IMG/VR virus record: IMGVR_UViG_3300035521_000126
Location: 1 to 64,000 of that record
Direction: 5' to 3' (one strand)
Length of the DNA stretch: 64,000 nt
Source of the DNA: an uncultured virus (IMG/VR IMGVR_UViG_3300035521_000126)
Lineage: Duplodnaviria; Heunggongvirae; Uroviricota; Caudoviricetes
Below the pieces are notes generated by a model. The model ran no database searches, was not told where the DNA came from, and worked only from the letters and a program-made list of their open reading frames with translations. Each line of letters starts with the position of its first letter. Position 1 is the first letter of the stretch. A program made the position numbers and the translations under genes. Shown here in pieces: positions 10,908 to 62,769 of the stretch.

Positions 10908-11936
10908 ATGGGTAGAGCAACTGTATATAATGATATATATTCAGAAGAAATATGGGAAAAAGTAAATATGGAAAACAAGGATTTACTAGATGACTTTGTT
11001 TCCTACAAAAGAAGTTCAGATAAGTCTCCGCAAACAATACATCAATACTATCAAATGATAAGATTGTTCTTTTGCTGGAATTATTCTAATAATAACAACA
11101 AGTCTTTTATTTTTCTTAAAAAGCGTGACTTGGTAAGATTTTTTAGCCAAGCTGTTGAAGAATGGCAATGGAGTCCAAATAGAATCCATACAGTCAAATC
11201 CGCGTTAAGTTCTTTAAGTAATTATATTGAAAATATCCTAGATGACGAATATCCTGATTTTAGAAATATTGTACAAAAAATTGAAGTTTCTGTAAAACAG
11301 CCGGTTAGAGAAAAAACAGTTCTAACACAAGAACAAATTGATGAATGTCTAAAAACTCTTGTATTTAGAAAGAAGTATCAAACTGCTTGTTATCTAGCAT
11401 TGGCGGTTGCTTCTGGCGCAAGAAAGTCTGAGTTGCTAAGATTTAAGGTAGATTATTTTAAAGACGAAAATATTAAGTTTGGATGTTTATATAAGACACC
11501 AGAACAAATTAAGACAAAAGGTAGAAGTAGTAAGGGTAAAATGCTTTATAAGTATGTGTTTAAGAATGATTTTAAACCATATTTTGATTTGTGGATGGAA
11601 GATAGAAAGAAAAAGGGCATTGAAAGTGAATGGCTCTTTGTTGTAAAAAATGGCAATGAGTACGTGCAAGCTAAAACCGGAAGCGCTGATAATTGGTGTA
11701 AAGAAATTAGTAATATTATTGGTGTTACTTTTTACAGTCACTCTGCACGACACGCTCTTTGTACTAAGTTAAGAGCGGCTAATTTACCAGACAAAATTAT
11801 ACAGGAATTTTTTGGCTGGTCGAGTCTAGAGCTAATTAATATTTACGATGACTCCAGTAGAGATGCAGATTTCGGAAAATACTTTACAGAAGATGGCATT
11901 GCCGAAATTGAACAAACTACTGTAAATGATATATAA
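10908..11936 (+). CDS. Tyrosine recombinase/integrase
   Basis: GARKSE (R), HSARH (HxxR), GW and C-terminal Y (NIYD); N-terminal SAM-like region. Confidence 0.85.
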   Translation: MGRATVYNDIYSEEIWEKVNMENKDLLDDFVSYKRSSDKSPQTIHQYYQMIRLFFCWNYSNNNNKSFIFLKKRDLVRFFSQAVEEWQWSPNRIHTVKSALSSLSNYIENILDDEYPDFRNIVQKIEVSVKQPVREKTVLTQEQIDECLKTLVFRKKYQTACYLALAVASGARKSELLRFKVDYFKDENIKFGCLYKTPEQIKTKGRSSKGKMLYKYVFKNDFKPYFDLWMEDRKKKGIESEWLFVVKNGNEYVQAKTGSADNWCKEISNIIGVTFYSHSARHALCTKLRAANLPDKIIQEFFGWSSLELINIYDDSSRDADFGKYFTEDGIAEIEQTTVNDI

Positions 11937-11959: not shown

Positions 11960-12631
11960 ATGACATTTAATGATTTATATGATAAGTTAAACGCCTATTC
12001 TTTAAAACTGATGTCAAAAGATGATTTTCATAAATTTTTAGAAGAAAATCTAACAATTAATACTTATATTCCTGTCATTCAGAAATATGCTTTAGTTGGT
12101 ATTGTTGGGAAGATTTATAAAAATTCCGTTAAAGTTGAAGAAAACAGCGAGGATTTCTCTGCTGAATATATTTACATGAGATATGAAGTAATAAAGATGT
12201 TCAATCTTTTATTCAAATATATTGATATGGTTGTTCCTGTCGAAAAGCAGACATTAAAGGATTATGACCTTGTTATGGAATCTGGTCTATATGACTTTAT
12301 CGAATCAAGATGTCATAACGACTATCAATATCTCTCAAATATGTGCGATAAGATTTCCGGTGTAGACAATCTTCTTTTGGTACATGAATTTATTCATGAA
12401 ATTGGGGATAGATTTAGCGTTGAAAATATGAAAGAAATTCGTAAGGAACTTTCTAAGCTTGATATGCGTAAATTAAAATTATTAGAGAGTGTTGCACAGT
12501 TTAATGACCCGATTACAGCAGAAGTTGCAAATGCTCTAAAAGAAAAGACGCATGAAGAAGTTTTTGAAGCGCATAAAGAGGCGGCAGAAGAGAAGTCTGA
12601 GAATACTGAAACAAACATAGAAGAAAAGTAA
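11960..12631 (+). CDS. Hypothetical protein (possible tail assembly chaperone)
   Basis: 223-aa ORF with AAGGAG RBS upstream of tape measure. Confidence 0.6.
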   Translation: MTFNDLYDKLNAYSLKLMSKDDFHKFLEENLTINTYIPVIQKYALVGIVGKIYKNSVKVEENSEDFSAEYIYMRYEVIKMFNLLFKYIDMVVPVEKQTLKDYDLVMESGLYDFIESRCHNDYQYLSNMCDKISGVDNLLLVHEFIHEIGDRFSVENMKEIRKELSKLDMRKLKLLESVAQFNDPITAEVANALKEKTHEEVFEAHKEAAEEKSENTETNIEEK

Positions 12632-12641
12632 GTGATACCAA

Positions 12642-13241
12642 ATGGCTAAAAAGAGCAGCAAATTAAGCCGCAATTCATACCATACGTTGGGTAATACCAA
12701 TGCTTATAGAAAACTTACACAAAAGGTACAAGAAAAAGTTGATGAAGCGCAGAAAGAAATTGAAAATGCTCTAACTGATATTGGAAAGTAGACTGTAGAA
12801 AAAATAAAAGAATACGTTAAACGTTATTATTACAATGCTTATCCAGAAGGAGACAACTATAATCGACTTGGAGAAAATGGTGGATTTTTGGGTACAATTT
12901 CTTATGAAGTAAATGTTTCTAATTTTTCAGTTAAGATATATTGTGATTGGGGTTTGTTAGATATTCGTAATGAACCAGACCCGAAGTTTCCTCACCACTG
13001 GGAAAATGGTCAAGCATTTACTTATGGTTTATATGATTATATGATGTATGGTAGTTGGCCTTTTAGCCGTAGTAACCGAGTTATTCAAGCAGGATTTAGA
13101 GGCATTGACGAAGATATGACAAAAGAAATTAAAGATTTTCTTGACTGGTATGTTTCTGATTTGGTATCGGCACGATTAGAGAAACTAGGATTTAATGTTA
13201 GTGGTCTTAAACATAGTGCTTCTGTCTTGCGGTCTGATTAA
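12642..13241 (+). CDS. Hypothetical tail-module protein (1 recoded TAG)
   Basis: ATG 12642; TAG 12789-12791 in frame with the 12888..13241 ORF. Confidence 0.7.
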
Positions 13242-13260
13242 TTTTAAGGAGGTGGGTTAA

Positions 13261-16200
13261 ATGGCTGAAAACATAATGTTTAATATAGGTATTGGTATTG
13301 ATAACGAGGTTGACCAAGATTTAGCCGAAGTTACAAAACAAATACAAGAAGTTCTAAAAACAGATTTAAAGTTTAATATTGATGCAAGCAATATTGAAGA
13401 ATTGCAACAGCAATTGGCAAATCTTGGTGGAGAACTCAAGATAACGAGAGATTCTGTAACTGGACTTGCTACTGGATTTACTGCGACTGCTACTGCCATG
13501 AATGGTCAACTTGTTCAAGTAAGTGGCAGCTTTGATAATTTGCAAACTGGTGCAGATAAATATGTAGCTAAATTAAATAGTATGCGTGACCAAATTTCTG
13601 GTCAAACTTCCGAACAAAAGGCCATAACACAAATTCAGCAAGAATATATTAGTTTGTTATAGAAAGAAACTGATATTAAAGAAAAACTAGCTGTTGCGGT
13701 TCAAAATCAAGATACTCAACAAGTAAGTTCTTTGGCAAACCAGCTTAGTAAAACCGAGACATTAATAGACTATCATTCTCAGCAATTACAATAGCTACAA
13801 GGTATGTCAACTGCTACCAACACTCTTAATACGGCTTTTGAACGAATATATCAAACAGCTCAACAACTGGACGAAAGAAATAACAATGCTGATTCGTATT
13901 TGGGTTCTGATACAGCACAAAGAATTATTGATATATCAACAAATGCACAACAGCTAACAAATACTCTTTAGGAATATTATACTGTTCAACAACAGGTAAA
14001 TAATACTGCGCCCGGAGAGTATTATGATGTTCTAAATAATAAATTAACTCAATTAAAGCCGTCTTATGATGCTGTTAAAACCAGTATGGAAGCTTTGGGT
14101 GTTGTGTTTGCGAATGGTCAGGCTCAATATACTGGGACAGCAGAGGCAGTTCAACAATTAGTTGAAAGATATAACGAGTTAGAGCAACAACAAAAGGAAA
14201 ACCAAGCTTAGAAAAATCAAGCTGCTACATATAAAGAAATTACAGAGGCGGTTAAGGCTTATTATAAAGCGCTAACTGACGTTAAGAAATCTAATAGCGT
14301 AGAAGGCTCTGAAACATACAAAGTATTACAGCAAAATTTAACCGCTGCTGCCAATGCCACTGTAACACTTAATGGAAAAACAACTCAATTACAAGATGTA
14401 TTTTCTGCCCTTGGTATTACTATATCAAATTATGGTTCAAACTTTACTGCTGCATACAGTGGTAAAAGCCAAGAAATCCAAAAGATTGTTGATTTAATTA
14501 ATCAACAAAGTCAGGCTTACGCCAAGCTTAATGCTCAAAAAGCAGACCAAGCTTCTGATACTGCATTAATTGAAAGTGCCGTAGCGGCATATAAAAAGTA
14601 TAGAGACCAATTAGATGTTGTTTATAAATTAAAGAAAAGTGGGAACACTGACTTTACAAGCAACCTAAAAGAAGAAGAAGAACTCTTAAAGCAGCTTAAA
14701 ACTGCGTATGAACAAGAAGAACAAGCTCTTCTTAGTAACGGTCAAGAAGTACAGAAAAATACAACTTATAACCGTGATAAAAACCAAGTAACTAGAGACT
14801 CTATTCAGGCTCAAAAAGAGTTTGATTTAAGTTTAAATACAAATTCGCTACAAAATGCTATTGCCTAGACACTGCAATACACTATTAGCTTGCAGGGCTT
14901 AAAGACTGCAATTAAAGAAGTTATAGATACAACTCTTGATTTGAATGAATCAATGACGCAAATTCAGCTTGTTACCCAACAAAATAATGATGATGCCAAA
15001 GAATTAATCCAATCTTATTCAGAATTAGCCAAGAGTTTGGGTACTACAACTGCTGATATAGCTTCTGCAAGTGTTGAGTGGCTTCGGCAGGGTAACAGTA
15101 TTGAGGAAACTAATGACTTAATTCAAGCGTCTGCAACGCTACAAGTCATTGGTAATATGGAAGCGTCGGATTCCGTACAATCATTAACGGCTGCTATCAA
15201 CGGCTATGGATTAGAAGCTTCTGACGCAATGCAGATAGTAGACCAATTAACCACACTAGATTTGAAGTTCGCAGCTTCTTCCGGTGATATAGCGACAGCT
15301 CAACTATTAAGGGCTGGGTGTGCAGTAATGCACATAACAATAAATTCTTTTAACTGCGGGAACTTCCTTAGAGATTAACATACTAAAATATGATAGGGAT
15401 ATACATATTGGCGAGAATAATTACCTCGGTATAGTAAAAATTGTTAATATTGGATAATCCGCAACTAAGCACCAAGAACTGGTGAAAGCTCAACGACCAT
15501 CCCATAGGTTCTTTTTAGAACAACAGGAGTACGGCCAATCGTTAAGGTGGGTGAAAATCCCTTAAATGGAAATGGAGAATATCCTACTCTTAGGATAAAG
15601 ATATGGTCTTTTCTTATTAGAAATAATAAGGTGTTTGTTTGTATCATGGAGATAAAAATATAATAACATAGAAGAATACAAACAAATCAATGTGGAATAA
15701 CGCCCCACATTAAAAATTTATACTTTCTAAAGTTGCATCTGTAGCCTCACAATCCGGTGTTTCACTGGAAAAACTAGAATCAATTCTGGTTGTCACAGAA
15801 GACCAAACACAGCAATCGGCAGACACCATTAACAAAACAGTGGTGTATAAATCAATTCTAATATTTATGCGAAAATCCAGAGATGGATAACGCTTCGGAA
15901 GGTAAATTACCGCCGACAACGACTGAATGAATTGACCAAATTTATTTTGGATGCAACAGTCTGAACACATAATATAATCGAACAATGAAATATGTGAATA
16001 GAAGTCATTGGTAATCAGACCAATTAAAGAAGAACTTCTATCGCCTACTATAAAGTAGGTCATAAAAGTAACAGAATGTGGTAATGCTAAATGTTCTTGG
16101 CATGGCACATAGTAATATGTGCAATAATTAATCCCTTTAATTGCGGGAAACCCCTTAGAGATTAACATACTAAAATATAATAGGAATATTATATTGGCGA

Positions 16201-19200
16201 AAGTAACTATTTCGGTATAGTAAAAATTGTTAATATTGGGCAATCCGCAGCTAAGTGTTCAGAACGGACAAAAGTTCATCGACTATCCAATAGCTTTCAA
16301 ATAAGCAACAGGAGTACGGCCAATTGTTTAGGTGAGTGAGAATCTCTTAAATGGAAATGGGGGACATCCTATTATTTAGGATGAAGATATAGTCAAAACT
16401 TGTTAGAAATAATAAGAACTTATATTAAAAATATAAATCATTGAAAGAATCTTATTTTTAATATAGGTTGCATAAAAATAACGAACTTATGTTAATTAAT
16501 TGTGGAACAGTATTTTTGCCAGAATGTCGAAAATTGCTGCTGGTAAAGACCTTGAAGACACTGAAGTAACGCTAAAATTTTGGCGCATTGTGGTATAATA
16601 AATAAGCCGCAAATGAAAATTCTTTCTAATGATTTAGTATTTTATACTAATGCTTGAAAACCCAGTAGGATGGGCAACAAGGAAGAAGCGATAATTATTG
16701 CACTTTGAACGACTAAATGAAAGAACACCATCGTGATGGTGATGTGATAGTCTGAACTACCGTATATTCCTACATATAAGCGGTAGAGATTGGGTCAGTC
16801 GTAAAGACGGCTTAAAGAAGAACCCAGTCCTTATTCTTTTTAGAATAAAGTAACAAAATTGAAATGATGTCGATAAGGTCTTAACCAAAATGAATATTAG
16901 TCTAAAGGATGAACAGGGTCAAATTCGTGACCTTGACGATGTTCTTGACGAAGTTGCAGGTCGTTGGGACACCTTTACGACAAATGAAAAGAACCAAATT
17001 AGTACGGCTATCGCGGGCACACGACAAGCCAACTATTTTAAGGCCGCAATGGCCGACTGGGGAGAAGTTCTTGACGGTACGCAAATTGCATTAGACGCAA
17101 ATGGTACGGCCACAGAGCGTATGGGTATTTATACCGAATCCCTAGGAGGTAAAATTAAGACCTTAAAGGCTACTTGGGAAGAATTTGTAGCCGATTTAAA
17201 TTTGGACGATGTTATCTCTAATGTAATTAGTACAGCACAAAATCTATTAGAGATTTTTGATACTATAATAAATAAAAGCGGTGTTTTAAGTACCGTAATT
17301 AAAGGAGTTCTTGTTGCACAAGGACTAAATATTTTATCTGGCGCTGTTGTAAAGGTTCTTGGTACACTAACTGGTAGTGGTGGATTATTAAGCGGCCTTA
17401 TTAAACTTACTCAGATAGCCCCTGAACTTTCTGAATTTGCAAGTTCTATAAATAGCGTCGCTGACGCACAAACTGCTTGGGCTTTAATTACTGGTGACGG
17501 TATTTTAAAAATAATCCCAAATATACTCACTCTACTTGGTGGTTCTGGTGGTCTTGTTGCTATTCTTGGAACTCTTGCTGGTACTATTGCGATTGTGGTT
17601 GCGGCAGTTGCCGCATTTAAATATGCTTGGGAAAATTGGTTGCCTACGCAAGCAAATGCAAATCGGCAACTAGAAGAAGCACAAGAAGAATTAGAGAATA
17701 CCTAGTCAGAACTTAATGATGTAATATCAAAATTAGAAGATGTTCAATCTCAAATTGATGATTTAAATAGTAAAGATACTTTATCTATTACAGATAAAGA
17801 GCAATTAGATATATTAAAGAAGCAAAGTGAAGAACTTGAAATACAAAAGTCTACACTTGAAGAAATGGAAAGAATCAAGCAGCAAGGCGTTCTTGATGCC
17901 AATATAAATAATCAAAATACCAAGAGTAATTTGTTTAGCTTTAACTTAGAAGATGGCCTAACAATAAATACTGCATATAACAAGAGCTTAGAAGAGCTTA
18001 TATCTACATATAAGACATTGCAGATTGTTGTTGATAAAACTGGCGATTCACTTGGAACTTTTGAGATTTATGGTGATGAATTACAAGACAGATACGATAA
18101 AGCTAATGCGACCATAAATCAATATCTCCAAATGGAGCAATCTGGTTTATTAACCACTAAGTATTATACTCAAGCCCAACTTGATTCTTACCAAGAAGCT
18201 TATGATAACGCTATTAATATTCGTAATTAGATTCTTGAAATTTTAAATCCTGAACAATTTAAGAAGCTTAAAATTGAAGAAGCTCTTGACACAAGTGGTT
18301 TCAAGGGTATTGAAACAACAATTAACAACTTAAATATTAAGTTAAAAAATGGCGAAACAACATTTGAAGAATATTCCGAAGCTGTTCGTGCGGCATTAAC
18401 AAAATTAGCACAAAACGACGATTTTAAGAATCTTCTTGGTGATATATTTACAGAAGATGAATTAAATGACACAGAAGCTCTCGTAGAAGAACTTGTTGGG
18501 TATCTTGATGTACAAACTAATGCTATTGTTGATGATGTCACTGATACCCAAAATGAAATTGTCGAATCTTTTGAGGGCTATGCCGACGGAATTAAAGAAG
18601 TAGAATCTTCTTATGAAACATTAAAAGATGCAGTAGACAGTTACAATAGTAGTGGTACTATTACAGCTAAACAACTAGAAGAATTATTGGCACTTGACCA
18701 AGATTATTTAAATACTTTAAGTTATGAAAATGGTCAAATTAAGATAAATGGAGAGGCTATTAGTTCTTTAAAAGAGGAACAATTGGCTCTTTATAAACAA
18801 CAGCTTCTTACCGCTGCTTCTGCCGAGATTATGGCTCGTGCGCAGCAAGTAAATAACCAGATAGAAGAAGATTCTGTTACTGATGCTTATGAGCTAAGAG
18901 AAGCTAATTTCCAGTTAAAAAATGGACATATTGAAGCTGCAACAGGTGCTTCTGTACAAGCGACTGCCGAAGCAGATTTACAGACGCAATTAACTGGTGT
19001 TGCTGCTAGTGCTGGACTTACAACTGAGGCAATTCAAGACATTATAGATAAATACACTGCCTTGTATGCTTTCGGAGAAAATGTATCTGGTTCTTCTTCT
19101 AGCAGTAGTTCGACTAACGCTGCTAAAACTGCTTATGAACTAGAAAAATCCAGATATGAACTGCTTGAAAAAGAAGTAGAATTAGAGAAAGACAAATTAG

Positions 19201-21510
19201 AAGCCCAAAAAGATGGAGTGAAAGCAGAAGAAACTCTGCTTAAAAATAAAAAATCCGAATTAGAGCTTCAAAAACAAATCAAAGAACAACAACTTGACAC
19301 TATACAAGATTCCGAGGAAGATATTACTGATTTAATTGAGTATGTCGAAAAGATGCTTAAACAACAGTACGAAGACCTCAAAACGAATCTTAAAAAGGTA
19401 AAAGAGTATGTTACTACTTGGCGTGACGCATTGTCTGATGCAAAAGATAGTTATGACGATATTACGGCTGCTATCGAGAAGCAAATGAAAGCTCAAAAAG
19501 AGCAAAATGACAATGAAAAGGCTCTAAAAGAAAAAGCGGATGCTGTTTCTGACGTTCAGGAACAATTGGCTGCTATTCAGTATGATACTTCTTCTGATGC
19601 TGCTACTAAGCGCGTCGAGTTACTAAAAGAACTTAATGATGCACAAGAGGCACTGACAGAAGAAGCACAAGACCAAGCATATGATTCTGCTCTCGACCAA
19701 TTAGACGCTGCTCAACAAAAAATTGATGATATTTTCGACTTTATTGACGAAGCGTTGGAAGACGCAGAAGATGCTATTGACGATTACGTTGACTATATTT
19801 CTAATACTTTAGAATCTGAAGGCAATCTGTATAAAGAGGCGTTGGCAGAAGTTCAATCTGCAATTGACGGTAACAATGACGAATTATTGCAAAAGCTTTA
19901 TAAGTGGAACAGCGCGAAATGAATGCGCTGTATAAATCGGGTTATATGCTGGAACACCCTAAAGACTTTAATACTAAAAAGTAAAAATTTAAAGTATGTT
20001 ACAATGGGCAATCAGCAGGGAAGATAAGTTCACCCTCAACGACTATGGGAATATCCCACTAATATATAAGTAATTATATATTAGAACCCCGATAAGGCAT
20101 AAGCCGAATGATATAGTCTGAACTTCCATAGAAATATGGAGAATTGGGCAGAAATGACCCAATATTTTTGTGTTAGTATTTGAAAACAAAACTAATTTTA
20201 TTTTTTTAGTATAACACAAAAATTAACAAAATTGATATGGAGACAACATTGCTGAAACCATTACAAAAGCTTGGAACGACGCTCTTGATGCTGTTGAAAA
20301 ATATAAAGATGCAACTGGTGAAACTAATCTGCAAAATATCCGTGAAGGATTACAAATGCAGGACACCACTCTTAGCGCAGAAATTGCAGCATTTGACACA
20401 CAAATTGATGCCTTGCAAAATCAGATTGATGCCAAAGAAATAGAGATTGATGCTCTTGAAGTATTAATTGATGAAAAAGAAGCAGAAATTGACCAGATTA
20501 AAATGGCTCTTTCTCAGCTTGAAATTAACTACGATGCACAAACTGTCGCAAGTAATAATGCTACAAAAGCTACATGGGACGAAGTATATGCTCTTATTGG
20601 GCAAACTGCTGCTACTACTGATAATACTACTGCAACAGAAAATAATACCGACGCAACTAGCACCAATACAGATAAGACAGGCGACAATACTACTGCTGTT
20701 GAAAATAATACAACCAAGGTTGAAAACGCAACAGATAAGGTGGAGGATTTGTCTTATAGTACGGATGTTGCTTCTGATAAAGTTGACGCAGCAGCACAGT
20801 CTGCTGATGACGCTTCTGACGCACTGTCTGGCGCTGATAGCCTAGCCGATGCAGCTTCTACGACCAAGGACGCAATTAGCGACCTAGGAGAAGCCTCTGT
20901 TGTTGCGGCAGATAAACTTACTGGTGGAGATGGAACTGGTAGTTCTAGCGATTCTAGCGGCACTACAACGAGTTCTGAAACCAGTGGAATTTTAGACCTT
21001 ATTAGTTCTGGAGTTTCTTACTTTACTGGCGGAACAGACGCCGGAACTGTTATCGGTAATCTACTAGCAAGATATATTCCAAAACTGGTTAATACCGGCG
21101 TAAAATACGCAATTAAGAAAGTATCTTCTAACCATGATGGTACAAATTGCGTTGAAAAGAGTGATTCTCCACTTGATGACTTGTTAGGACTTGGCTCTGA
21201 CGAAACTGCTCGTGTGCTAAAAGTTGGAGAAACTGTTGTTCCTAACTACGCAAGTGATGTTAAGATTCAGCAAACCGATGAACCGTTTACTACTTCTATT
21301 GATTCTCCGAATGCTTCTAATATTTCTACTAATAATAGTGGAGACTTCAATCTTGACATGGGAGATTTGGATATTTCTGGAATTGATAGTGACGAGTTAA
21401 TGAACCAGTTAAAGAGCTTAAAGAAAGACTTCGCTGACGAGGTTTATTCTACTATTAATAAGCATATTAAAATCGGTGGATATAGAAACGTAAAAAATAG
21501 TTACATTTAA
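13261..21510 (+). CDS. Tape measure protein, about 2185 aa; exons 13261-15300, 15723-15829, 16079-16088, 16503-16573, 16862-19915, 20235-21510; 7 recoded TAG
   Basis: AAGGAGG RBS; TP901-like TMP core (ASVEWLRQG, ...GDIATA|LSKVAS...SADTI|GNA|WNSIFARM...L|NDVDKVL...AGTRQ); spliced length 6558 nt = 2186 codons; TAG at 13660, 13792, 13969, 14209, 14866, 17703, 18228. Confidence 0.85.
15301..15722 (+). ncRNA. Group I intron TMP-1 (422 nt)
   Basis: P1 CAGCU|C...GGGCUG with U.G; P4/P5 UGCGGGAA...AAUCCGCA; P7 GACCA/UGGUC (AAGATATGGTC); the frame-restoring 3' end is A15722, not G. Confidence 0.8.
15830..16078 (+). ncRNA. Group I intron TMP-2 (249 nt)
   Basis: P1 ACACCAU|U...AGUGGUGU with U.G; P7 GACUG/CAGUC; terminal G16078. 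Confidence 0.8.
16089..16502 (+). ncRNA. Group I intron TMP-3 (414 nt)
   Basis: P1 AUGCU|AA...UUGGCAU; P10 UGUUC/GAACA; P7 GACUA/UAGUC (AAGATATAGTC); terminal G16502. Confidence 0.88.
16574..16861 (+). ncRNA. Group I intron TMP-4 (288 nt)
   Basis: P1 CGCU|AAA...UUUGGCG; P7 GACUA/UAGUC; terminal G16861; CT+A restores the Leu codon. Confidence 0.82.
19916..20234 (+). ncRNA. Group I intron TMP-5 (319 nt)
   Basis: UGCUGGAA...AAUCAGCAGG (P4/P5); P7 GACUA/UAGUC (GATATAGTC); terminal G20234; P1 ACAGCGC/GCGCUGU; splicing restores WNSA-YGD. Confidence 0.8.
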
Positions 21511-21520
21511 TTAGGACACT

Positions 21521-21554
21521 AGCCCGCTTTGAAAGATAGGCGGGCTTTTATTTT
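21521..21554 (+). terminator. Rho-independent terminator after tape measure
   Basis: AGCCCGC...GCGGGCT-TTTATTTT. Confidence 0.65.
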
Positions 21555-21573
21555 ATAAAGGTGGTTGGATAGT

Positions 21574-22476
21574 ATGCCTGTAATGGGGTGTCCATTTATT
21601 TTTAATGAAATACCTTCCGAGGCATATAACGCCTCTTTAGTATTTTTGGAAGAACAATATACAAAACGTCCTTCTGGTGGACAAAAACAATTTACTACGG
21701 ATAATGTCAGAGGAAATTCAAGGGCAATTCTATTAGATGTTTCTCAAACAGAACCTTTGAGTTTCGGAATTGAAATTGTGTTTGATGAACCAGTAGATAT
21801 TCAAACTTTAACACAAGTTAAAAATTGGTTATGTTCTCCTTTGAAATATTGTAAACTTAGAATTTGTGCAGAGGGTTTTGAAAACTATTATTATAATTGT
21901 TATATAAACCTAGATAATGATTTGATTTATAATGGTGGTTATCGTGGAGTTACTGGTACAGTAACTTGTGATGCACCTTGGGCTTGGGAAAACGAACAAA
22001 CTATTGATTTAGAAATTGGGACATCGACTGTCCCTGCTGAAAATAGATTTTTAAATTACTCTCAGGACGCTAATCCGATGAAACCGATTATTTCATTCAC
22101 TGTGACAGAATCAAATTCAGATTCATTTTTAGCAATTGAAGATGTATTTGAGGATTCTAATGGGAATATTATATATGATAAAACTACAATGTTTGTTTCT
22201 ACCGAAAAGACATATACACAAAGGGATGGAACAACCATATCATATAAAAAACCTGACGGAAATAGTAATTTATATAAAAATGAAAAAATTTCTTTTGATA
22301 ATCAAACTGCGTTAATAACCTCTTCTGTTGATGCGTTTTTCAGAATTGGAAACTTTAACAAGGTATTTCTCCGAATTCCTCAAGGAGTAAATAAATTGTA
22401 TGTGTCAGGGTTAAATATATCTAATTTAAAAATGACTTATACTAATGCTAAGAGATTAGGTGGTGGTTGGTATTAA
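21574..22476 (+). CDS. Distal tail protein (Dit)-like
   Basis: Immediately after TMP; CDAPWAW and FLRIPQGVNKL motifs typical of siphophage Dit. Confidence 0.75.
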   Translation: MPVMGCPFIFNEIPSEAYNASLVFLEEQYTKRPSGGQKQFTTDNVRGNSRAILLDVSQTEPLSFGIEIVFDEPVDIQTLTQVKNWLCSPLKYCKLRICAEGFENYYYNCYINLDNDLIYNGGYRGVTGTVTCDAPWAWENEQTIDLEIGTSTVPAENRFLNYSQDANPMKPIISFTVTESNSDSFLAIEDVFEDSNGNIIYDKTTMFVSTEKTYTQRDGTTISYKKPDGNSNLYKNEKISFDNQTALITSSVDAFFRIGNFNKVFLRIPQGVNKLYVSGLNISNLKMTYTNAKRLGGGWY

Positions 22477-25400
22477 ACAGAACTTTGATTTTAATGGTTT
22501 ATATGACATTCCAGTGCTGGAATTATGTAATCCAGACAAAAGACAAATTGGCATTTTAACAAATGTAAAAAATTTAAAATTAAGTTTGAGATATAATAAT
22601 GTGTCTGAAATGTCTTTTACAGTTTATGCTAAAATAAACGACGTGGATTATCCATATTATGATTTAGTAAGAAAGATGCGATTAATTCATGTCGAAAATA
22701 TGGGATATTTTGTTATTTCAGAAGTGAATGAGCATTTTGAATATGACATTCCGTACAAGGAAGTATCTTGTTATTCAGCAGAATATATGCTGAATTATAA
22801 ACCAATAAATATTTGTACTACCACATTAACTTCAACCTCTAACGCAATTTACAGTAAAAGTTTTAAATTTTATGACGAAAGCTATCCTGATGACACGTTA
22901 ATGTATCAATTGTTTAATGGATTTTATGATTGGAAATTTGATGCAAGCGACCTCGACAAGGATTTAATGAATCAATATCGTTCTTTTAGTGATACTGGCG
23001 ACGGACTTTATGGATTTTTGCAGAATTATGTCGCTTCTGCATATGAATGCGTTTTTATTTATGATATTGAAAATTTCACTGTAAAAGCATATAAAACTTC
23101 TGAAATTGTGAATCAAACAGATATTCTTTTTACTTTTGATAATTTAATTAAAAGTGTTGATATGAAAGAATTATCTGATGATATTTGTACAGTATTATCT
23201 GTTTCTGGTTCTGACCAATTACCATTGTCTTTGATTAATCCTACTGGAACAAGTAATATTTACAATTTTAATTATTACCTACAAGATAAAGATGACGCTT
23301 GGATAGGTAAGAATGTTTATTCTAAAATGGATGATGGCTCTATAAGGCTGGACTCTAATGGAAATAAAGTATTACTAAAAGATTATGTATATGAATGGCA
23401 AGAAAAAATAAAGGAATTAATTTATAGTTCTGATAAAGAAGGTTCATATGCTCAATTACTTTCGGATAGAGCATATTTTAATTCTCAATATAATTTATTA
23501 TATGCGAAATATATTGAAGCTACATCAATTGCCAGTTATTTAACTGAGGCCATTTCTACGTTTAACGAAGAGGAAAAAACAACTAAAAAAACAGGGTGGA
23601 CAACCCTTGCAGTTGGTATTGGACTTGTAGCGATAGGTGTTGGGTTATTATGGCTTAGTGGTGGTGGTTCTAGTACATTGGTCGCTACTGGCACTACAAT
23701 ACTTACGAAAATGGGAGCAGATGCCGCTACAGCGGCAACCATTGCTTCTTATCTTCCTGCCGCTGCTGCAACTTCTGGCAAGTTAGTTTTAGCTAGTGCC
23801 AAAAAAGAAGTTGTGAGTGCTGTTTCATATCTGCCACAAACTCTTGCTATTCAAGCATCAAAAGAAGAATGCCAAAAAATGCTTGATACTGCCAATTCTA
23901 ATAGTGAATTGCTTTTTGGTGGGAATGGCAAAAATGGATATATTAAAAATCTTGATTATTCAACCGTAACAACCGCCGTTAGTGGCACTTCTTCTGTTGC
24001 TATTACAAGTGAAAATACCATGTATATTTGTGGTGATTCTTCTGGTGTAGAAAATCTATCTAAAAGAAAACCAGATTTAAATTCCGAAACAAGTATGCCA
24101 AAATATTATTCTATGAGCGTATTAAACCAAAAAATAGCTCAAATAGATGCCGAAATACAAAAATATATCACAACTTATGGGTATAATTATTATTTCTCCG
24201 AAGAAGATAGAAAAGTTCTTGAACCGTTCCTGATTCAAAGTGAATACACCGATGAAGCATTTACTGCCACAAGCGATGTTACAATTGACGATGATACTGA
24301 TTTAACTCAGTATATTACAACAACTCAAGGAGTAATAACTATCCAAGAATTTTTGTATAGAGAACAAGGATATTATTTTAATTTTTATACAGAATCTACA
24401 ACTAATTCTTGGAATGCAACTCCTGTAAAATTTATACAAGAAACCTTTAGAGATATTGTTGAAGCCAAAAATAATGATGAAGGTACTTATGTTTTAACAT
24501 ATAATGGAAAAACTTGGGATATGAGCGGTACTAAAGAATTTGCCGGAATGACGCTTGGAAAATCCATTGGCATACTGGATAATTCTTCTGCTGCTGGGTA
24601 TAGTTTTGTGAAAGAAGACAAAATTCTTGTAAAATTATTCAATCCAGACATAGAGATGGTTAATACAACAACTATTGCAATGCAACTTGCAGAACAAGCA
24701 TATAACGTGATAGACACAGTTAGTCAGCCAGCATTTTCTTTTAGTATGAATACATCTAATTTTGTATTTCAAAAAGAATTTGAACCTTGGTTAAGTCAAA
24801 TTGGATTTGGTAGTAAAAAAGACAGTAATAAATATCTTGGTTTTGGTACTGTTGTTAATGTCGAATTGGAAAACGGAGAAGTATTACAACCTTTCTTACA
24901 GGAAATTGATATTGATTATGAAGATTCGACCTCTATTGAAATGACATTTGGCAATAAATTTAATTTAGGGACTTCCGAATGGACACTTGGAGATTTGATA
25001 AGTGAAAATACTTCTACTATAAATAGAGTAAGTCGTGCGCTTATTGGAACTTCTTCTGGTGTTTCTAGTTCTGTTTCTTCTATTTCTAGTAACACTACAA
25101 GTACGCTTCAAGCTCTAAGTGGGACTTCTCAGCAAATTAGAGAAGAGCAAGCAAAAATGCTTACAAGTCTGGAAGAAAGCGACACGGCTATAAAAAATAA
25201 TTTGGCCGCTGCTACTACATAGGAAGCAATATTTAATAAACTTACAGGTGGAGACAGCGAGAAACAAGGTTTATATTTAGACACGAGCGACCCACAAATT
25301 TCTTCTGTAACAGGCGAAACTTACTACCCGTTATATATTGGAGCAGAATATATTAAAGCTGGTACTATGGAGTCCATGCGTTTTATTACTCCAATTCTGA

Positions 25401-26026
25401 CAAATGAAGACGGTAGTTCTTATTTGAATTTTGAGAATAACACACTAAAACTTGGTACTTTATATATAGATGAATATGGGATTGCAAGATTATATAATCC
25501 TGAAACTAATGAAGATACTAATATTATAGATAGCATAAACGCCACTGATACAACTCTTTCTAATTGGACTGCTGTTGACGGTAAAAGTATGAACGGAGAA
25601 AAGGTATATGGTAATTCAATTGGGTGGAGTCAATTATCTTCTGATTGTGTGTTCAAATATCTTGGAAGTAACGGAAGCTCTTCTTGGGGTGCTGGATGGT
25701 GGTATTTAACTCTTAGTGATTATAACGCTGTTTTAATCACGTTTGGCTCTGGTTCTACTGATGGCAATAATGTATCGCAACCTACAACGGCAATATGTGC
25801 AGTTGGTTCAAGTGGTTCAGTATTTGGTAGAATGTATCATGGGAAACTATTTGGTTCTAACCATCCTATTGGATATAGAACTTTTAGCGTCAATACGAAT
25901 GGGGTATATTTTAACGACCCAGCTTGGCATGGATTTGGCCTTGGTAAAACATGGCAAACAACAGATGAAACAAGAAAAGGTTTTGTTCCAAGAAAAATAT
26001 ATGGCATAAAATTTGGAAATAGTTAA
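22460..26026 (+). CDS. Tail tip/hub (Tal-like) minor structural protein (1 recoded TAG)
   Basis: The 920-aa ORF continues through TAG 25220-25222 (T-T-*-EAIFNKLTGG...QGLYL) into the 25367..26026 ORF in the same frame. Confidence 0.75.
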
Positions 26027-62652: not shown

Positions 62653-62769
62653 TGGCACTTGGGGTTGGATTTGAACCAACAGTCTACGCCTTGATAATGG
62701 AAGACTTTCTTGCTGTTACCGCCTAATAGACAGCATTTTCGTCGCTTTAACCAATTAAGCTACCCAAGT
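62653..62769 (-). ncRNA. tRNA-like RNA (117 nt) with an expanded, non-canonical anticodon arm
   Basis: Perfect acceptor ACTTGGG/CCCAAGT-G-CCA; D arm GCTT/AAGC; T arm GTTGG-TTCAAAT-CCAAC; about 50 nt enclosed by ACG/CGT in place of the anticodon loop. Confidence 0.8.

Follow-up and report, generated by a model that had tools for sequence, protein, structure and literature searches.

The locus described here raises the question of how one long tail protein can be made from a stretch of DNA that no single reading frame spans. The window analysed (64,000 nucleotides [nt], positions 1 to 64,000 of IMG/VR record IMGVR_UViG_3300035521_000126, from an uncultured virus of the Caudoviricetes) is the first 64 kb of one 72,104-bp contig, and in it the region 13261-21510 reads under translation table 11 as a series of short frames on the + strand. 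Reading TAG as a sense codon leaves three long frames (13261..15378, 16890..19922 and 20356..21510). A first-pass annotation, made from the sequence alone, had proposed that the region is a single tape measure protein (TMP) gene split by five group I introns, with exons of 107, 10 and 71 nt packed into about 190 nt of coding sequence. Both claims stood up: intron model scores, collinearity with homologues, an allele in the sister genome L001 and a joined contig from an RNA library all support the split gene, and the four introns concerned lie within 188 nt of coding sequence (107 + 10 + 71). The locus is therefore very probably the TMP gene of a TAG-recoded tailed phage that has been invaded five times by mobile group I introns of three sequence types. 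Exons (E1 to E6) and introns (I1 to I5) are listed in Table 1.

Membership of the tape measure family was established by the frame 13261..15378 (705 amino acids [aa]), which matched Pfam PF10145 (PhageMin_Tail) above its curated cut-off (E = 1e-11; 45.5 bits against 33.2), and by a position in the tail module, with a minor tail protein gene (22445-26026; phrog_6211) downstream. The match covered only profile positions 2-99 of 201, so that the domain breaks off at the first insert; the Pfam scan was run on the E1 frame and not on the joined protein, and the remainder of the domain was placed in exons 2-5 by collinearity with homologues. Removal of the five inserts (1692 nt of the gene's 8250 nt, leaving 6558 nt of exon sequence) gave a single frame with zero internal TAA or TGA codons and seven TAG codons, at residues 134, 178, 237, 317, 536, 1024 and 1199. 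This frame has 2185 codons with the preferred I5 border, and about 2183-2186 across the candidate borders. The single frame and the seven TAG codons of the first-pass annotation were thus recovered, and its length of 2186 codons corresponds to E5 ending at 19918, as opposed to 2185 codons at 19915, a border that is uncertain. Across the contig, in-frame TAG was frequent and concentrated in the + strand late genes. Residues aligned to the seven TAG sites were mixed (at residue 536: Q 20, R 20, K 13, N 12), and glutamine for TAG is only the customary guess.

Table 1. Exons and introns of the TMP gene in the window, and additional TMP features of the sister genome L001.
Feature	Coordinates	Strand	Description
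TMP gene	13261..21510	+	Six exons, five introns; PF10145 in exon 1, homologue collinearity
Exon 1 (E1)	13261..15300	+	2040 nt, 680 codons; five in-frame TAG
Intron 1 (I1)	15301..15722	+	422 nt; class A (IA-like), RF00028; last base A
Exon 2 (E2)	15723..15829	+	107 nt; tblastn start of P0002 residues 576-613
Intron 2 (I2)	15830..16078	+	249 nt; class B, model R1; ends in G
Exon 3 (E3), micro-exon TGGTAATGCT	16079..16088	+	10 nt; completes an Ile codon, encodes G-N-A
Intron 3 (I3)	16089..16502	+	414 nt; class A, RF00028; ends in G
Exon 4 (E4)	16503..16573	+	71 nt; whole exon inside the joined RNA-library contig
Intron 4 (I4)	16574..16861	+	288 nt; class B; ends in G; exactly absent from L001
Exon 5 (E5)	16862..~19915	+	~3054 nt; two in-frame TAG; 3' end uncertain
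Intron 5 (I5)	~19916..20234	+	~319 nt; third IA-like type; ends ...AACAAAAUUG
Exon 6 (E6)	20235..21510	+	1276 nt, to TAA stop; P0002 residues 1677-2073 match 20230-21504
Extra L001 introns	L001:11827-12232, 12342-12714
Insert in L001 copy of I1	L001:13233-14491

The case for introns is carried by covariance-model scores, homologue collinearity, an intron-less allele and the joined contig. Rfam model RF00028 (curated cut-off, the gathering score, of 50 bits) matched I1 (15267-15630, 65.6 bits) and I3 (16089-16416, 69.4 bits) above the cut-off and I5 just below it (19876-20141, 49.4 bits, E = 2e-10), with nothing further elsewhere in the 64 kb at E 0.01. Relatives of I4 were collected via a 16-nt core motif (43 loci, 7 with a matching P7 3' strand and 36 unrelated), and a covariance model, R1, was built from the I4-type cores of the window, L007 and L021 only, with I2 left out. 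R1 nevertheless matched I2 at full length (15846-15998, 82.4 bits, E = 4.9e-20), with a best match of 20 bits outside I2 and I4. The J6/7-P7 and J8/7-P7 motifs were common to I2, I4 and I5. By sequence, the introns fall into class A (I1 and I3, which share ~80% identity with one another and with two introns of the sister genome), class B (I2 and I4) and a third type (I5). Compensatory changes were tested in class B only, using an alignment (A3) of six introns (I2, I4 and relatives) that was fitted to the model and to which P7 was added as a pseudoknot: 95.9% of 246 cells formed pairs versus 39-44% with partners slid, both sides had changed in 30 of 49 pairs, and 0 of 500 shuffles reached these values. 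Covariation was found for the I2-type fold in P3, P7, P8 and P9. ORF (open reading frame) lists held no homing-endonuclease ORF inside any of the five window introns.

Candidate internal guides pair with the last bases of the upstream exon in four introns (I1: CAGCU/GGCUG, 5 exon bp; I2: ACACCAU/GUGGUGU, 7 bp; I3: AUGCU/GGCAU at 16099, 5 exon bp; I4: CGCU(AA)/(UU)GGCG, 4 exon bp), in each case with U.G at the cleavage site. Overall, P1 ends in U.G at the 5' splice site in four of the five introns, and four of the five end in G. In the paralogous introns I1 and I3 the guides differ together with the exon sequence. As the first-pass annotation had said, I3 takes the exon strand of its P1 from the 5 nt at the 3' end of the micro-exon; the first 2 nt of the micro-exon can pair beside the I2 guide (P10). 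I4 and I5 share the 3' tail AACAAAAUUG. As 129 of 1610 exon U positions (8%) can form a nearby U.G-closed helix of at least 5 bp, P1 pairing alone is weak evidence for any one site.

Homologous proteins follow the exons closely. A phmmer search of exon 1 against 1.84 billion proteins returned 3763 matches at E ≤0.001; most of the best 150 stopped at residue 680 of the query, where exon 1 has its final codon, and many of the 150 homologue clusters ended within the core. In tblastn with six long homologues, high-scoring segment pairs (HSPs) ended at 15300 in four of six and continued to 15324 in the other two, and HSPs started at 15723 in all six, at 16503 in three and at 16863 in four. When the product spliced by script was compared by blastp with the uninterrupted 2074-aa homologue P0002, the alignment to an intron-less homologue proposed at first pass yielded one HSP across all five junctions (residues 379-2184 versus 280-2073; 1874 columns, 38% identity, 1039 bits); a further homologue, P0003, spanned junctions 1-4 at 49% identity. 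That precise removal of the introns restores the frame is seen in the open frame, the P0002 HSP, the L001 allele (without I4) and the RNA-library contig (without I2, I3 and I4).

Collinearity extends to the micro-exon. P0002 has ETI-GRA-WNS; the matching residues of the window are DTI, G-N-A (encoded by the micro-exon) and WNS, and homologues carry I-G-[NRE]-[AS] at this position, including G-N-S, G-E-S and G-N-A. A lack of GNA in homologues had been named at first pass as a finding that would refute the exon; the homologues have G-[NREK]-[AS] there, which does not refute it. In the DNA of L007, another TAG-recoded phage, the codons for E-T-I-G-R-A-W-N-S are uninterrupted, and an I4-type intron occupies the same site 4. 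The P0002-like phage of L007 (L007:1-283) also has in-frame TAG in its TMP gene, so that a second lineage combines TAG recoding with TMP introns.

Comparison with L001 (IMG/VR, a 102,894-nt contig), whose exons are 91-100% identical to those of the window, revealed differences in intron content. I4 (window 16574-16861) was missing from L001 to the base. Conversely, L001 carried two extra class A, RF00028-positive introns in its TMP gene, at window sites 15084|15085 and 15192|15193, so that the two genomes together have seven TMP intron sites. The L001 copy of I1 holds a 1259-nt insert, and the 442-aa ORF within this insert has matches to families of homing endonucleases (phrog_12131, E = 3.4e-50; Pfam DUF7487). 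Both an endonuclease ORF and presence/absence at conserved sites, as expected of mobile introns, were thus found. I1 is 94% identical to the second extra intron of L001 and has the same guide, and I1, I3 and the first extra intron of L001 are ~80-83% identical to one another; one intron lineage has therefore spread within the gene by changing its guide. I4-type introns also occupy the TMP site of I4 in L004/L021, L007/L032 and L009/L019, and in L030 an I4-type intron lies one codon from site 3.

Two regularities of the intron sites were also observed. The class A sites at window positions 15084, 15192 and 15300 are spaced exactly 108 nt (36 codons) apart, and the sites of the window and L001 mostly follow ...GCU, with the exception of I2 (after ...CAU) and I5. 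These patterns could reflect an internal repeat in the TMP core or a guide preference of the intron lineage.

Contigs of one public gut metatranscriptome run (X1) were compared with positions 13200-21600. One 367-nt X1 contig (depth 5.03) reads the last 38 nt of E2, then E3, E4 and E5 as far as 17107, joining 15830 to 16503 with GGTAATGCT between the two sides, and 16573 to 16862. Lacking I2, I3 and I4, this contig fixes the six borders of those introns to the base. It also keeps the 10-nt exon, and, together with the IG[NRE][AS] of homologues, upholds the first-pass proposal of a micro-exon at 16079-16088 supplying I-G-N-A. A twintron arrangement, with I2 inside I3 and the 10 nt as part of the intron, was rejected, as the joined contig retains these 10 nt and the frame needs them. 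Sequence of I2 and I3 was also present in run X1 (depth ~2), and almost none of I4 was covered. The joined form was absent from DNA in the searches made: searches of viral contigs gave intron-bearing close relatives only, and two scans of metagenome contigs had no match. The joined contig is probably spliced mRNA; it is compatible with splicing and does not prove it.

If the preferred reading is correct, each intron would fold into a group I core, form P1 between its internal guide and the 3' end of the preceding exon, and excise itself via two transesterifications. Four of the five introns lie in the conserved PhageMin_Tail core, which leaves the exons of 107, 10 and 71 nt, and five splicing events would rebuild one mRNA of ~2185 codons, whose translation would also require seven TAG codons to be decoded as an amino acid. 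Two ribozymes share the 10-nt exon, whose last 5 nt are the exon strand of P1 in I3 and whose first 2 nt can form a P10 with I2. That the introns splice themselves, and in what order, is inferred. TMP may tolerate such an intron load because few copies are needed per virion.

Several points weigh against this reading, and they begin with the two outermost introns. The last base of I1 is A15722, and there is no G in 15703-15731, and so no terminal guanosine; the G-binding pair in P7 of I1 is unchanged relative to a 94%-identical paralogue that ends in G. In I5 the stretch 19910-19919 contains no U, and hence there is no canonical U.G at the 5' site, where the pair would be C-G, G.U or A-U; sites that keep the frame would end E5 at 19909, 19912, 19915 or 19918, leaving this border uncertain. 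How I1 and I5 would cope with such non-canonical bases is conjecture. The class B introns are poorly served by the general model: RF00028 scored I4 (16563-16786) at 17.6 bits (E = 0.73), far below the threshold, and gave no match to I2 (15830-16078) or to the I4-type copy of L004. The group I model search recommended at first pass reached the cut-off for I1 and I3, fell short of it for I5 (49.4) and I4 (17.6), and missed I2, which was found by R1. Alignment A3, being fitted to the model, leans its way, and in its rows L009 and L030 the 5' halves are endonuclease-gene sequence that is not homologous to the intron core. The joined contig differs from the window by 6 letters in its 246-nt exon 5 part; of the other listed X1 contigs, six of seven have no difference and one has a single difference, and L001 is identical to the window there, so that the joined contig stems from a third variant. 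It may derive from another strain, possibly an intron-less one. RNA libraries can also contain DNA. X1 contigs do not cover the E1/E2 or E5/E6 junctions, and ARAGORN found no suppressor tRNA (CUA anticodon) in the 72,104-bp contig.

The same I1 3' end is present in L001, and other 3' sites for I1 were rejected, as each nearby G breaks the frame, meets TAA or deletes the conserved L-S-K-V-A (frames read by hand). For I5, the P1 hairpin is 19909-19916/19924-19931, without U.G; in related introns found elsewhere, the base of the homologous hairpin is a U.G pair (a 17-mer scan of the I5 region gave 90 loci, 9 of which match over at least 137 nt). The spacing [WY]-N-x-[KE]-Y-G in the five homologues with HSPs on both sides of I5 favors E5 ending at 19915 (2185 codons). 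Alternative 5' sites ending in U (19885, 19888 and 19897) were rejected, as they would delete the conserved L-x-x-[WY]-N stretch.

It had been suggested at first pass that five splicing events and TAG read-through could act as a timing or dose control on tail assembly. Such a gate, in which selection keeps the cluster because five rounds of splicing and the read-through of TAG jointly hold back or restrict TMP synthesis, would suit a protein that, as general knowledge has it, is needed in few copies per virion, as well as two introns whose non-canonical splice-site bases should slow splicing and the concentration of in-frame TAG in + strand late genes. In the accessible part of its text, a preprint also proposes that recoding gates late-gene translation (10.1101/2021.08.26.457843). 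The proposal sits badly with intron content that varies among genomes 91-100% identical in their exons (L001 without I4, the window without two L001 introns), with an intron copy that bears a homing-endonuclease gene (I1 of L001) and with uninterrupted homologues (P0002, P0003, and L007 at sites 1-3). We consider it unlikely, and the first-pass suggestion of a control device found no support in genomes that are nearly identical yet differ in their introns. An extended form of the idea has full-length TMP limited on purpose by I1 (terminal A) and I5 (no U.G) through splicing that is slow or depends on a late phage or host factor, with the cluster and TAG suppression setting the low dose or late timing of the ruler and skipping of the 10-nt exon giving a shortened N-terminal product that has its own function; its chances appear equally slim. 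Variable intron content and the endonuclease gene fit selfish mobile introns better than a control device, and the introns are best seen as selfish elements crowding a conserved homing region rather than as a built-in regulator.

The odd ends of I1 and I5 could instead point to a partly decayed allele, in which I2-I4 splice and I1 and/or I5 do so poorly or not at all, so that little or no full-length TMP is made and the genome would persist only as a variant that is defective or dependent on a helper. The A that ends I1, the missing U at the 5' site of I5, the want of RNA contigs across the E1/E2 and E5/E6 junctions, and the status of the window's I1 as a derivative that lost the endonuclease gene of the L001 copy would all agree with this. 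We nonetheless judge it improbable: the same I1 3' end and I5 sequence recur in independent contigs of other samples (L001; L002 and L114 for I5 only), the flanking exons are open, collinear and conserved, and 6558 nt of exon sequence contain no frameshift or TAA/TGA stop. It could finally be argued that there are no introns, that TMP is encoded as several separate ORFs or that the gaps are assembly errors, and that the ribozyme-like matches are incidental. Gene callers do give many short TMP fragments in relatives, and many of the 150 clusters stop in the core. This is already contradicted by the evidence above and hardly deserves credence, given two Rfam matches above the curated threshold, a fold backed by covariation, pieces of 107, 10 and 71 nt that have no start codons of their own and fit homologues residue for residue, the absence of I4 from L001 to the base, a joined contig that contains the micro-exon, and the same layout in independent contigs. 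Invasion of a TMP gene by mobile group I introns is thus the explanation that we prefer.

Some observations on the homologues and the locus stand apart from these arguments. Twelve of the 150 TMP homologue clusters (P0020, P0028, P0031, P0042, P0057, P0059, P0064, P0087, P0095, P0112, P0124 and P0135) stop 4 codons past the codon of the window's intron 2 (...TI-RR-I/S-I-stop). In the corresponding DNA of L005 (L005:4720-4760) there is one extra base and no intron, and TMP resumes (GESFKTIF...) in the +1 frame; interpretation of the 12 clusters as intron-interrupted genes was rejected on this one-base frame change and the lack of an Rfam intron, and their stop marks a split TMP or else a conserved change to the +1 frame. 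A search for loci encoding homologue P0009 found none. Read on into intron 2 (15830-15895), exon 2 continues as ...KSILIFMRK... and then stops; KSILIFMRK aligns weakly with the F-K-T-I-L-A-R-M-G-K of homologues (the exon 4 stretch; tblastn E = 0.004-5.6), probably by chance. A minus-strand ORF overlapping this region (15710..16243, 177 aa) has no Pfam or PHROG match and is probably spurious. Upstream of the TMP gene by ~1.3 kb, within the + strand block, lies an integrase-family ORF (10908-11936, +; phrog_1, E = 6e-30). At 62656-62769 (-) there is a tRNA-like gene (RF00005, 50.3 bits) with a 40-51-nt insert in the anticodon arm, which ARAGORN detects in intron mode only and to which it assigns an odd anticodon.

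This would be the most intron-dense phage gene that we found described. It shows to what degree a conserved homing region can fill up with selfish introns, with one lineage retargeting its guide to new sites within the gene, and that a 10-nt exon can serve two unrelated ribozymes at once. It also accounts for the fragmentation of such TMP genes by gene callers, and to annotate recoded gut phages one needs both the correct genetic code and gene models that allow for introns. I1, with its terminal A, and I5, without a U.G pair, offer natural test cases for the rules of splice-site choice.

Several known systems share features with this locus. In orf142 of Staphylococcus phage Twort, three group I introns in one gene, against five here, and exon skipping have reportedly been described (work said to be that of Landthaler and Shub from 1999); skipping between neighboring introns would be a known risk that bears on the micro-exon. 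The closest precedent is the set of group I introns TMP-IVS1, IVS2 and IVS3, which occupy three sites in TMP genes of Bacillus cereus-group prophages (Tourasse and Kolsto 2008, PMC2504315); their publication in 2008 leaves incomplete the first-pass statement that phage group I introns are best known from DNA-metabolism genes. As far as the available part of that paper goes, its introns resemble those of the window in host gene, in IA type, in having several insertion sites in one gene, in being ~80% identical homologues that differ mainly in P1 with guides adapted to different sites, in copies without complete endonuclease genes, in a patchy distribution among related phages and, for TMP-IVS1 and IVS2, in spread by guide change within the gene. 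The same part describes three sites and at most two introns per gene, whereas the TMP gene of the window has five, and the two genomes together have seven sites, with four introns within 188 nt of coding sequence, a 10-nt exon and an uncultured TAG-recoded phage. Tiny exons left by adjacent self-splicing introns and overlooked by gene callers are known from organelles, including, in the accessible text of PMC12308204, a 1-nt exon between two group II introns of Ophiostoma rnl; that case is mitochondrial and involves group II introns, in contrast to group I introns in a phage here. For Bastillevirinae phages, the part available of PMC11878797 gives 45 group I introns in 37 genes of four gene families (~one per gene), with splicing shown in vitro and by nanopore RNA reads and one gene alternatively spliced; its text never mentions 'tape'. 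The preprint of Borges et al. (10.1101/2021.08.26.457843), in its accessible part, describes gut phages in which, as here, late and structural genes (TMP among them) contain in-frame TAG and mobile introns break genes into fragments, with introns treated there in passing only (an early-gene intron endonuclease and fragmented terminases). Literature searches on phage introns and small exons returned neither a micro-exon from a phage nor any phage gene split by five group I introns. Set beside these systems, the TMP gene of the window is an extreme case of known selfish-intron invasion and not a new mechanism; what is new is its intron density, a 10-nt exon in a phage gene and two odd splice sites.

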